DNA of 64,000 nucleotides from a virus (lineage: Duplodnaviria > Caudoviricetes): IMG/VR virus record IMGVR_UViG_3300002220_000062, positions 27,454 through 91,453 of that record. One strand, 5' to 3'. Of the stretch, positions 1,182 through 4,510 are shown one piece after another. A program made the translations under genes and the position numbers. Below the pieces are notes generated by a model. The model saw only the letters and a program-made list of their open reading frames with translations. It was not told the DNA's origin and ran no database searches. Position 1 is the first letter of the stretch, and each line of letters opens with the position of its first letter.

Positions 1182-1255
1182 AGAATTTGCCCCTCTGGTT
1201 AGTAATAATTAGAGCAAACTCAGAATCCTAGAAATAGGGGTTAATTAATAATTAA

Positions 1256-1813
1256 ATGGAAATAATAAAAGCAGGTCAAAAACCAAAAATGGGAGATTTT
1301 GTATATGTTGTACAAGATTATACTAGTTTTACATATAAAGATGCTAATGGTAATTGTAAACATTGTTATCTTGATAATATGTCTTCACTTTGTTACACCT
1401 TAAAAGATGCCGATGAAAAGAAACAAGCAGAAATACTTGAATTATTTAAAAGTATTTTTGATGTTAATTCAAAAGTTACCTTTGGTGTAAATCTAACAAG
1501 AATGGAGTATATTGAGACTCTTAAAAAACATTTTACTTTAATATCTTGTGTAGAAGTTCCAACAGGATATGGAACACGTCAGAAACAATATCATGCTATA
1601 TTTTTTACAAATTCTATGGCTAGAGATTATGGTGGTACTTATAGAGGTAGATTAAATAAAGAAGGTGTAATTGTAAGCACTATGAAACATAGGAAAACTA
1701 TAAATCCTGGTGATAAAATTGACACTGTAATTAATGAAAGTGATATTGAAAAGATAATGTCTTATAAGAGTAAATATCATCTACAAAAATTTCTTAGAAC
1801 AAAAATTAATTAG
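1256..1813 (+). CDS. Intron-2-encoded hypothetical protein A (between the P3 and P4 5' strands)
   Basis: 185-aa ORF with an A-rich leader; no HNH, GIY-YIG or LAGLIDADG motif seen; stop TAG abuts the P4 5' strand. Confidence 0.8.
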   Translation: MEIIKAGQKPKMGDFVYVVQDYTSFTYKDANGNCKHCYLDNMSSLCYTLKDADEKKQAEILELFKSIFDVNSKVTFGVNLTRMEYIETLKKHFTLISCVEVPTGYGTRQKQYHAIFFTNSMARDYGGTYRGRLNKEGVIVSTMKHRKTINPGDKIDTVINESDIEKIMSYKSKYHLQKFLRTKIN

Positions 1814-1847
1814 CTAACGGGGAAACCCTTTATAAAAATAAGTAAAA

Positions 1848-2147
1848 ATGAAAAAAACTACAACAGCGTGTTGTGCGTTATGTCAAATTAATAATGTAAA
1901 TAATGATACAACTATTGAAGAGTTAGAATATGCAATTGACATATTAACTAATCAGAAAGAGAAAAATACAGAAGTAGGTATTACAACAGGTAATGGACAA
2001 ACTTCAGTATTTGTTATAGTTTCTCCTGGAGAATATGTACTAAGTAGAAATCTAAAAAAATTAGGATTTGAACTTAAACACACATTTGAAAGAAGAAAAG
2101 GATATCCACCTGTTGGAGAATTAGAGATGTATATTAAAAATCTTTAA
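1848..2147 (+). CDS. Intron-2-encoded hypothetical protein B (P5 loop), possibly a degenerate GNAT-like fold
   Basis: 99-aa ORF; CCALCQI near the N-terminus and NLKKLGFELKHTF resembling the C-terminal GNAT motif; fold call is weak. Confidence 0.7.
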   Translation: MKKTTTACCALCQINNVNNDTTIEELEYAIDILTNQKEKNTEVGITTGNGQTSVFVIVSPGEYVLSRNLKKLGFELKHTFERRKGYPPVGELEMYIKNL

Positions 2148-2149
2148 TT

Positions 2150-2713
2150 ATGTGGGAGACTTATGAATGGGGAAGGTCAAGATATGACATTCTCTATAAA
2201 GATGGTAGTACAGAAAAGATAAAGAGTGCATGTTTTGCAGCACTTACTCGTACTACTAATAGCACAATTAAGCGTATAAAATTATATGATTTTAAATGTA
2301 AACCAACTATAGAATATCGTAAATGGTATTTAGAATATGTTAGTGATATGTTACAACTAGAAGAGGTAGAAATTACTGAAGACTATATAGCATTTGACGC
2401 ATATGATAATAAAAACAAAAATATGTTAGTATTATCATTATTTAGATTTTTATATGAACAACTTGGTTATGTTACACCTATAATTCAAACACATGAGGTA
2501 TTTTTAGAACCTTTAAGAAATGGAGAATGTGAATATATAGATAAATTAGAAAGATTTTGTTACTTCTATAGTAAAATAGAAACAAAAAAAGCTTATTATT
2601 CTACTATACATTCTTGGTATCCTAAAACTACTGTTATTAAATCAACAGAAGATTTCTTAAAGATTAAAAAACTACCATCTGTTAATTCATTTTTTACTTA
2701 TGAAAAAAACTAA
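2150..2713 (+). CDS. Intron-2-encoded hypothetical protein C (P5 loop)
   Basis: 187-aa ORF starting 2 nt after ORF B; its TAA is part of the P5 3' strand. Confidence 0.8.
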   Translation: MWETYEWGRSRYDILYKDGSTEKIKSACFAALTRTTNSTIKRIKLYDFKCKPTIEYRKWYLEYVSDMLQLEEVEITEDYIAFDAYDNKNKNMLVLSLFRFLYEQLGYVTPIIQTHEVFLEPLRNGECEYIDKLERFCYFYSKIETKKAYYSTIHSWYPKTTVIKSTEDFLKIKKLPSVNSFFTYEKN

Positions 2714-2978
2714 AGACAATCCCGTGCCGTCACTTGATTTTAATATAATAAAAACTAATACATTTAAAGAAGATGATGAAATATGTCATATAAGAAATTT
2801 TATGGTAGGTTTACCTTACTTTTTTAAAGCAACTGATTATGATGTAAAACATTATTCAGGAAAAAATGGTATTTATTTGTTAAAACAATACGGTGTAGAG
2901 ACTAACAATGAGAAACCTAAATCAGGACACATGACAGAAATATCATGGGGTAGTAAAAAACATCCTGATGAAGATTAG
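2700..2978 (+). CDS. Intron-2 ORF D overlapping the ribozyme core (P4' to P8)
   Basis: 92 codons open across P5', P4', P6, P7, P3' and P8; ATG overlaps the end of ORF C; the long P6 loop looks coding. Confidence 0.5.
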   Translation: MKKTKDNPVPSLDFNIIKTNTFKEDDEICHIRNFMVGLPYFFKATDYDVKHYSGKNGIYLLKQYGVETNNEKPKSGHMTEISWGSKKHPDED

Positions 2979-3065
2979 GTTTATGAGATAGTCCGAACTA
3001 TATGGTGACATATAGAGCCAAACAGAAATGATTTGGCTGTGAAAATTAAACAAAAATTAATAAAA

Positions 3066-3566
3066 ATGAAATTATATTTAAAAGATTATAAAAAAAAATC
3101 AACTACATGTGTAAAAAGTTTTTTATTAGATTATTATAAGAATGTTTTCAGTTTAGAAGGAACACCTGCTACATACTTTAGTCCTATATGTGACGAAAAA
3201 GATTTGCAATGTTCTGCTAGAAAATCACGTTCATTTACAGATATGTATTATTTAACTAAAACTTATTTTCCAACATTAACAGAAAAAACTTTTACTAAGA
3301 AATTAGTAGAAGTAATGAAAGTGCATAAGTTAAAATTCTTATTTTGTAATGGTGCAAAAAAAACAGTAATACATGCCAGTTTTGGTACTAATAATCAAAG
3401 AACAAGTAACTTTTTTAAGTCATTAGTATTTGATTATTGTGGTTTATTAAAGACTCAATATAATCTAAAAGGTAATGGAGAGCATTCTATAATAGATGTA
3501 ATAGAATTTTCTGGTTATAAAAATGATGTAATTGAAAAAGAACTTAACCGTTTAAGGAACACATAA
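3066..3566 (+). CDS. Intron-2-encoded hypothetical protein E (after P9.1)
   Basis: Likely start is ATG 3066 because the TTG at 3033 lies inside the P9.1 stem; no recognisable endonuclease motif; ends 8 nt before the 3' splice site. Confidence 0.78.
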   Translation: MKLYLKDYKKKSTTCVKSFLLDYYKNVFSLEGTPATYFSPICDEKDLQCSARKSRSFTDMYYLTKTYFPTLTEKTFTKKLVEVMKVHKLKFLFCNGAKKTVIHASFGTNNQRTSNFFKSLVFDYCGLLKTQYNLKGNGEHSIIDVIEFSGYKNDVIEKELNRLRNT

Positions 3567-3574
3567 CAAAATTG

Positions 3575-4510
3575 AAAACTCAAATAGCCGATTGGTTATT
3601 TTTGTACAATACTATTCAACAAGTTATTGAAAAATCTCTAAATATCAAATTAAAGATATTTTATTTTAGTTTAGAAATGTCTAAGGAAGAAAAGATGCTA
3701 GCAGCTTTCTCTAATATTATATATATTAAAGAAGGTATAAGAATAGCTCCAAAGGACCTTAGAAGTACTAAATCAGATAAAATATTAAGTGAAGAGACTT
3801 TAGAGTTAATATCAAAATATAAACCATATTTCGACAAAATTGAAGAAATAGTTGAATTTATAGATGATATTAGAAATCCCACAGGTATTTATAAATTTGT
3901 TAGAAGTTACGCTATTGCAAATGGTGTACAACATAAGAAAACTATAAATATTAAGGGTACATTAACAGAAATCGATGATTACTATGAACCAAACGACCCT
4001 GAAGAGTACGTTATGGTTTTTATTGACCATATAAGTTTGATTTCTACCGAGGAAGAAGGAGGACAAAAGATGAATTTGCATCAATCTATTGTCAAGCTTT
4101 CTTCAGATTACCTTATTAGATTACGAAATAAATATAAATACATTCCAGTTGTTATTCAACAACAAGCATCTGCTCAAGAATCCGTAGAGAATATGAAAGT
4201 CGGAAGACTTAAACCTTCAATGGATGGATTAGGAGACTGTAAGCTTACCCAAAGGGATGCAAATGTTATATTGGGACTATTTAGTCCTTTTCGTCATGAA
4301 TTAAGAGAATACCAAGGATATGATATTACCTTTTTTAAGGATAATATTAGATTTCTAGAAGTATTAGGTGGAAGAGAAGGTGGTGGTGGTACAGTATGTC
4401 CACTGTTCTTTGATGGAGCAGTGAATTATTTTAAAGAGTTACCAAAACCAATGGACCAAGAAGGGCTTAGAAGCGTTTATAGTTACATTGAGAAAACAAT
4501 TAAAAAATAA
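3575..4510 (+). CDS. dnaB: DnaB-like helicase, exon 3
   Basis: Begins KTQ (second half of Walker A); FYFSLEMS, VFIDHISLI (Walker B), VVIQQQ and QRDANVILGL match SF4 helicase motifs; spliced product is 366 aa. Confidence 0.92.
   Translation, partial: KTQIADWLFLYNTIQQVIEKSLNIKLKIFYFSLEMSKEEKMLAAFSNIIYIKEGIRIAPKDLRSTKSDKILSEETLELISKYKPYFDKIEEIVEFIDDIRNPTGIYKFVRSYAIANGVQHKKTINIKGTLTEIDDYYEPNDPEEYVMVFIDHISLISTEEEGGQKMNLHQSIVKLSSDYLIRLRNKYKYIPVVIQQQASAQESVENMKVGRLKPSMDGLGDCKLTQRDANVILGLFSPFRHELREYQGYDITFFKDNIRFLEVLGGREGGGGTVCPLFFDGAVNYFKELPKPMDQEGLRSVYSYIEKTIKK

Follow-up and report, generated by a model that had tools for sequence, protein, structure and literature searches.

In the window (the whole 64,000-nt stretch of viral DNA analysed here, part of a 91-kb IMG/VR virus record), an open reading frame of 92 codons, ORF D, runs through the 3′ half of the predicted ribozyme core of a group I intron that interrupts a DnaB-like helicase gene. 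ORF D is probably, and we hold this with good confidence, a real, selected, intron-borne protein-coding gene threaded through this half of the core. The overlap of the threaded ORF with the core itself also appears to be selected, judging from the sequences of related introns, which keep the same layout. Overlap between intron ORFs and the core, together with a “core creep” model, has already been published (PMC3073962). The overlaps described so far are usually short, involve one end of a nuclease gene and are regarded as evolutionary accidents. Here, the same RNA appears to have been maintained in two roles, as catalytic core and as coding sequence, throughout hundreds of diverged introns whose loops have exchanged coding modules. 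The arrangement bears on self-splicing introns that carry non-nuclease cargo and would offer a natural system for studying how the ribosome and ribozyme folding share one RNA under coupled transcription-translation.

The split helicase gene and the dispersed core of intron 2

The window helicase found its matches among crAss-like phages, the nearest being Cellulophaga phage phi14:2 (Steigviridae) with 54% identity. The gene, on the + strand like all the features described below unless stated otherwise, is interrupted within its Walker A loop. Exon 1 (715–870, ending in ITANS) is followed by group I intron 1 (871–1172, terminal G at 1172), which has no ORF and matched Rfam Intron_gpI with 99.5 bits at 872–1120; reading the sequence by eye, U870 could pair with G909 in P1 of this intron. 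A 9-nt micro-exon (1173–1181, AAAGTGGGT) encoding K-V-G of the Walker A loop separates intron 1 from group I intron 2 (1182–3574, terminal G at 3574), which is homologous to the phi14:2 intron and has its core dispersed around five co-oriented ORFs, A to E. Exon 3 (3575–4510) begins KTQIADW. At the site of the micro-exon, relatives lacking intron 1 read an uninterrupted AATAGTAAAGTGGGT. Removal of 871–1172 and 1182–3574, with the exons joined in a script, gave an intact 366-aa helicase reading ANS-KVG-KTQIAD (ANSKVGKTQIAD) across both junctions. The spliced product shared 51% identity with the uninterrupted helicase of crAss phage cr108_1, in an alignment inspected as far as residue 350 and unbroken at both junctions.

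The same twin-intron arrangement is present in the relative L004, with a different first intron, and the second intron alone is found in L005, L013, L017, L019 and phi14:2. Rfam at gathering thresholds gave no match over the whole 64-kb window, the two introns emerging only when a short stretch (3.2 kb) was scanned permissively, and further introns in the window may have escaped the whole-window scan in the same way. ORFs A to E (1256–3566) showed no match to a homing-endonuclease family and no meaningful family score in Pfam, PHROGs or NCBIfam; despite this, the intron 2 family occupies several different genes.

The core elements of intron 2 were placed by homology and covariation, and every coordinate was then verified letter by letter. 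P1 pairs GGGU (1178–1181) with GCCC (1189–1192) and provides the U-G pair at the 5′ splice site, G3574 lying directly before exon 3. The 5′ strands of P3 (CUCA, 1219–1222), P4 (1817–1822) and P5 (1828–1832) lie far upstream of their partners, with P3 and P3′ (UGAG, 2909–2912) about 1.7 kb apart and P4 and P4′ about 0.9 kb apart. The remaining strands are crowded into the region read by ORF D. Specifically, P5′ (2711–2715), J5/4, P4′ (2720–2725) and the 5′ strand of P6 (2726–2730) coincide with codons 4–11 and the conserved peptide KDNPVPSL; the P6 loop (L6, 2731–2889) holds a 52-aa variable module of ORF D together with a closing RNA stem; and P6′ (2890–2894), J6/7, P7 (2900–2904), P3′ and the 5′ strand of P8 (2915–2923) correspond to codons 64–75, YGVETNNEKPK. 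The P8 loop (2924–2972) leads to the 3′ strand of P8 (2973–2980), which is followed by J8/7 and P7′ (2989–2993).

Nine combinations of P3 strands were seen across 22 relatives, two of them with a G-U pair; besides these two G-U variants, the relatives carry TTCC/GGAA, CTCT/AGAG, CTTC/GAAG, TTCA/TGAA, CACC/GGTG and GATC/GATC. P7 occurs as GACUA/UAGUC, GACUG/CAGUC and GGCCA/UGGUC, and pairing of P4 with P4′ and of P5 with P5′ was predicted in every relative folded. Rfam Intron_gpI aligned the P8-J8/7-P7′-P9 part of intron 2 at 2865–3015 (29.3 bits, E 8e-5). This score is under the gathering score of RF00028 (50 bits), as about 2 kb of ORFs divide the core and spread it over 2.4 kb; the compact relative L008 gave no Rfam match. 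With P3 and P7 covarying and the spliced helicase intact, the predicted RNA core of intron 2 is taken to be real, and with P1, the terminal G, the covarying core and a host gene restored on its removal, intron 2 is a predicted group I intron.

Other insertions into the core were noted in passing. In group I introns the joint between P3 and P4 is normally 3 nt. The corresponding stretch of the window (1223–1816) contains a hairpin with a GAAA tetraloop (CCUAGAAAUAGG) and a stem formed by GGUUAAUU and AAUUAGCU, with ORF A in the loop of that stem; in L005, a stem homologous to the one bearing ORF A closes a 4-nt loop and has no ORF. LAGLIDADG-like ORFs, recognized by eye, lie on the − strand in L004 (about 2290, directly after P7) and in L019 (about 8580, inside P7′); the core itself is broken by both, so each may be a nested or invading element.

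The threaded frame and its modules in related introns

ORF D extends from ATG 2700 to TAG 2976–2978 (92 aa, GC 28%). ORF C (2150–2713) lies in the P5 loop and ends with the UAA at 2711–2713 within P5′, so that the two ORFs overlap by 14 nt, ORF D being in the +1 frame. From P5′, ORF D passes through P4′, P6, P6′, P7, P3′ and P8, and it ends at a UAG inside the P8 3′ strand; about 62 nt of it are strands or joints of the core (P5, P4, P6, P7, P3, P8). The preliminary description of this DNA had already drawn a 92-codon ORF along this path, with an ATG overlapping the end of ORF C and a stop in the P8 3′ strand. Its coordinates were verified and all of its structural assignments were right, the ORF listing and the letter-by-letter check agreeing on both ends.

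Database searches assigned ORF D to no family: there was no Pfam match at E ≤ 1 and no NCBIfam match at E ≤ 0.1, PHROGs gave only weak matches at E > 0.05, and a search of the ESM Atlas gave no usable match. No homing-endonuclease or maturase domain (LAGLIDADG, GIY-YIG, HNH, His-Cys box or PD-(D/E)XK) was found in it. AlphaFold models were weak both for ORF D (pLDDT 40) and for a typical family member with 67 aligned sequences (pLDDT 60), the latter showing L6 as a hairpin of two helices and the parts encoded by the core as coil.

Related introns were collected with an 18-nt word from J5/4-P4′-P6, which retrieved 19 IMG/VR loci, and a 15-nt word, which added three true metagenome members; the resulting sample comprises 22 distinct introns counting that of the window, and the retrieval word does not select for an open frame. 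The span of the P6 loop was in phase with ORF D in all 22, with 13 different spans of 28 to 286 nt and about 17 unrelated module groups, for which the chance of phase conservation is roughly (1/3)^16 = 2e-8. From P5′ to P3′, the 22 introns contained three stops in the ORF D frame versus 110 and 203 in the other two frames, and two of the three were in L004, just past P7, where the LAGLIDADG-like ORF is inserted. Among the 19 introns in which P8′ was located, the P8 loop was stop-free in the ORF D frame in 18. The threaded frame stopped at a UAG in P8′ in 13 of these 19, at a UGA in J8/7 in three and 11 or 23 nt downstream of where P8′ begins in two; it stopped earlier in two introns (L013 and L021). 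Of the 19 relatives with P8′ located, 17 had the stop at P8′, J8/7 or the start of P7′, a stretch in which, across the family, every one of the three frames has a stop. The frame was kept in 20 of the 22 introns and broken in L6 of L021 and in L8 of L013. A direct counterpart of ORF D, alike in frame and stop, is g027 of phi14:2 (YP_008242251, annotated as a hypothetical protein). Loss of the frame in relatives had been named in the preliminary description among the results that would speak against its proposal; the frame was retained in 20 of these introns and in g027.

Selection on the protein was examined in homologous pairs of loop modules. Three pairs of L6 modules, all from other introns of the family, gave dN/dS values of 0.24, 0.34 and 0.25, with a pooled pS of 0.45 vs a pN of 0.17 (Fisher p 1.5e-5). 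Two pairs of Cys-rich L8 modules from relatives gave 0.30 and 0.26. Taken together, the loop modules of homologous introns have dN/dS values of about 0.24–0.34. For the window’s own L6 module, the codon-usage score was 0.54 vs 0.60 ± 0.22 for the genes of this phage and −0.12 ± 0.17 for stop-free random codons of the same composition (p about 5e-5, analytic control). A search for related loci with this module in IMG/VR and JGI metagenomes found no relatives; two family proteins, P0003 and P0004, share it (86% and 78% identity over the shared part, gap-free in L6) and have L8 tails quite different from that of the window.

When 1.84 billion protein representatives (50% identity) were searched with a profile built from the two core motifs, 237 clusters matched at E ≤ 1e-3; these derive from called ORFs and are therefore silent on the frequency of closed frames. 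From the 153 clusters fetched, 135 proteins had both motifs, and 69 of these 135 begin no more than 12 residues from DNPVPSL. At least four Cys residues in the tail were found in 63 fetched family proteins; ORF D of the window lacks the Cys4 or zinc-ribbon-like tail that is common in the family. Larger fusions also occur. In L007 (883–1548), the threaded ORF is preceded by a GNAT acetyltransferase domain fused to it in frame (Pfam PF00583; 28.4 bits against a cut-off of 20.7), suggesting an enzyme carried as intron cargo, and in L004 a homologue of ORF C is fused upstream in frame to the equivalent of ORF D. A module with the pattern LHKFNKL...YC..NGI.YN is N-terminal, in the P5 loop, in L010, L011 and L115 and C-terminal, in the P8 loop, in L012, which suggests that coding modules move between loops.

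Part of the loop sequence shows signals of an RNA rather than a protein. In the P8 loop of the window, AUCAGGA and UCCUGAU form a hairpin around an inner CAUGA-CAGAAAUA-UCAUG (fold z −2.9). ORF D passes through this segment as KSGHMTEISWGS, which was considered as a protein domain and rejected: compared with L040, the segment has no synonymous and five non-synonymous differences, its first part is identical in DNA, and it forms the hairpin, all of which points to an RNA module and not a protein one. The hairpin loop resembles a CAGAAAUGA loop after P9, and the segment is read as an RNA tertiary-contact module merely traversed by ORF D. A CAGAAAU loop motif caps the hairpins at 2934–2941 (P8 loop) and 3024–3032 (after P9), and the copy after P9 is also present in L006, L012, L015 and L021; the motif may serve as a tertiary contact. 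The closing stem of L6 also gave a significant RNA fold (z −2.9); part of the constraint on L6 therefore acts on RNA, and L6 serves both RNA and protein.

Translation, splicing and ribosome entry

Intron 2 is a member of a large family of group I introns of marine crAss-like phages. The threaded ORF of this family sets out within the P5 loop, where it has an AUG of its own, placed a few codons ahead of P5′, or is the last part of a longer gene of that loop. Its path then takes in P5′-P4′-P6 (..DNPVPSL..), a variable P6-loop module, P6′-P7-P3′-P8 (..NGVETNxEQP..) and, in the P8 loop, another variable segment, ending at the UAG in P8′ or at a UGA or UAG just beyond. As a ribosome covers about 30 nt and unwinds its track, translation of ORF D and the folded P4-P6/P3-P8 core would exclude each other, and with them translation and catalysis, on one RNA at any one moment. 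In the T4 td intron, early translation of I-TevI into P6a and P7 reduces splicing, according to the passage of PMC3073962 that cites Gibb & Edgell (2010).

The preliminary description had held that ribosomes on the ORF would unfold the core, and that the resulting switch between translation and splicing could time the start of DNA replication. The unfolding follows from the geometry and has the td/I-TevI precedent; it may or may not act as a switch. The timing of replication found no support, the threaded ORF being present also in introns of primase-like, SF2 helicase-like and other genes. Overall, the 22 homologous introns sit in at least four different host genes, with insertion sites in the helicase P-loop, in an SF2 helicase-like gene (motifs by eye), in a primase-like gene (upstream exon by eye) and elsewhere. 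The occurrence of the layout in several host genes indicates a trait of the intron, not regulation of the helicase. In the window, expression of the helicase, and hence phage replication, would depend on removal of an intron whose core is read as coding sequence.

One alternative keeps ORF D as a real gene and uncouples it from splicing: the protein would be made from the excised intron or from intron-internal transcripts, and the overlap would be compact dual coding that regulates nothing. We regard this as quite possible, if somewhat short of an even chance. All of the coding evidence fits it equally well, the several unrelated host genes argue against host-gene-specific regulation, and T4 separates I-TevI translation, which takes place on late transcripts, from splicing in time (PMC3073962). 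The search for intron-internal promoters does not favor it, as the Bacteroidota −7 motif occurred at chance level and sigma-70-like sites were under expectation, in scans that are weak and leave crAss-type promoters uncovered. In addition, the overlap of ORFs C and D, which are fused in L004, would let ribosomes of the P5-loop gene run into the core on whichever RNA they translate.

A more far-reaching form of the proposal would make ribosome passage obligatory to the decision between mRNA and splicing. A fixed translated track through the core would serve as a scaffold into which small modules (helical hairpins, zinc ribbons, GNAT) are swapped in frame in L5, L6 and L8. We consider this rather doubtful; if true, the scaffold would be a built-in toggle between translation and splicing of a type not described for group I introns.

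The ribosome might, conversely, aid folding. Translation of ORFs B, C and D behind the polymerase would leave the late core strands unpaired until transcription has passed P7′ and P9; ribosomes would then leave at the P8′ stop, the distant strands would pair correctly, and translation would promote splicing. Translation of the upstream exon is known to help td splicing (PMC3073962), and such a role would fit the stop positions of 17 of the 19 introns, which lie between P8′ and the start of P7′ in a stretch with stops in all three frames across the family. These stops, however, sit in conserved core sequence that the RNA needs anyway, and dN/dS values below 1 indicate that the peptide itself matters beyond the passage of ribosomes. 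Such a role of the ribosome in folding is judged unlikely.

How ribosomes would reach ORF D is suggested by comparison with L004, which reads FFTYEKNKDNPVPSL in one frame, the ORF C homologue passing straight into the threaded frame. The window differs from L004 by one extra C after a run of seven A, as a result of which ORF C stops at the UAA in P5′ and ATG 2700 lands in the frame of ORF D. In the family, ORFs with a short start of their own are the form met most often, which favors initiation at ATG 2700, most probably coupled to the end of ORF C translation, and leaves a +1 slip as a minor alternative; whether by ATG 2700 or by a +1 slip, ribosomes on the P5-loop gene would continue into the core. 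An AU-rich 15-bp helix with one bulge, predicted to extend P5 (1836–1850 with 2687–2701), would bring the ORF B start region opposite the nucleotides leading up to ATG 2700, with the A and U of this codon at its edge, and may sequester the start site; this helix is of low complexity (an A-run vs a U-run), shows no consistent pattern in relatives and may be due to chance.

It was also considered that ORFs C and D are one gene, joined by a +1 shift or by polymerase slippage at GAAAAAAAC (2702–2710), with ATG 2700 unused. The single frame of the close relative L004 and the position of the extra base just past the A7 run are in keeping with this. The extra base, however, is a C after the A run, whose length is unchanged; the separate short form is the commonest, with 69 of 135 proteins starting within 12 residues of DNPVPSL; and P0007 combines an L004-type L6 module with its own start. 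Such a joint gene thus has only a small chance of being correct, and entry at AUG 2700 is preferred. A −1 frameshift at A_AAA_AAC was rejected, ORF D being in the +1 frame.

Comparison with known intron ORFs

In fungal mitochondrial group I introns, ORFs continue the reading frame of the exon before them, so that their products (LAGLIDADG proteins, GIY-YIG proteins or maturases) are exon fusions. ORF D is similar to these in being a long frame that runs through parts of the intron structure, but the introns of the window have in-frame stops after each 5′ splice site and ORF D starts inside the intron.

The td intron with I-TevI offers a closer likeness, as its ORF, likewise in a group I intron of a phage, has nucleotides in common with core helices. 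The I-TevI ORF lies in one loop, its 3′ end overlaps the core (P6a and P7) by 20 nt, and its start region is structured in the RNA (PMC3073962). Unlike I-TevI, which is a GIY-YIG homing endonuclease, ORF D lacks a nuclease domain, and its path takes in seven core strands, helices and joints amounting to about 62 nt; in place of a single loop, two or three successive loops hold coding modules in the ORF D family. The LAGLIDADG ORF of a cyanobacterial LSU rDNA intron, from Synechococcus lividus, has an 81-nt overlap with P6/P7/P3/P8/P9.0/P9 (PMC3073962, Table 1), so that it and ORF D both overlap P6, P7, P3 and P8. A search of the literature found no paper on a core-threaded ORF with in-phase coding modules in successive loops, nor one on an intron family of the ORF D type in crAss-like phages.

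In the “core creep” model (Edgell et al. 2011), a stop codon is lost and the ORF extends to the next stop (PMC3073962). The model predicts variable, dispensable extensions of loop ORFs, whereas in the ORF D family the frame is kept, the L6 inserts are in phase and purifying selection is seen. An origin of ORF D as such an extension was rejected, given the same frame and core path in 20 of 22 introns and loop dN/dS values of about 0.3. More generally, it is highly improbable that ORF D arose as an accidental open frame or by neutral extension and has no selected product: stop-free stretches can be accidental, the core segments (8 + 10 codons) are themselves stop-free in the ORF D frame and the P8-loop part alone would stay open with a probability of 0.3, but the base composition gives only about 1.2e-4 for all 92 codons, and dN/dS, codon usage and the statistics of phase and stops over the whole family stand against it. 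The suggestion in the preliminary description of a chance open frame is therefore rejected, the threaded frame being kept in relatives.

The counterpart in phi14:2 is the most directly comparable ORF. Like ORF D, g027 belongs to an intron at the same helicase insertion site, has its frame through P4′/P6/P7/P3′/P8 and ends with a UAG in P8′; it differs in its L6 and L8 modules and in having a Cys4 tail, and phi14:2 has no intron 1. As phi14:2 is a cultured relative that grows on Cellulophaga baltica, the relation between translation and splicing is directly testable. In its RefSeq record (NC_021806, L001), the intron is unannotated and the helicase is split into separate entries, exon 1 (217–411) being annotated as the hypothetical protein g024 and the helicase g029 (3100–3942) being called from an internal start.
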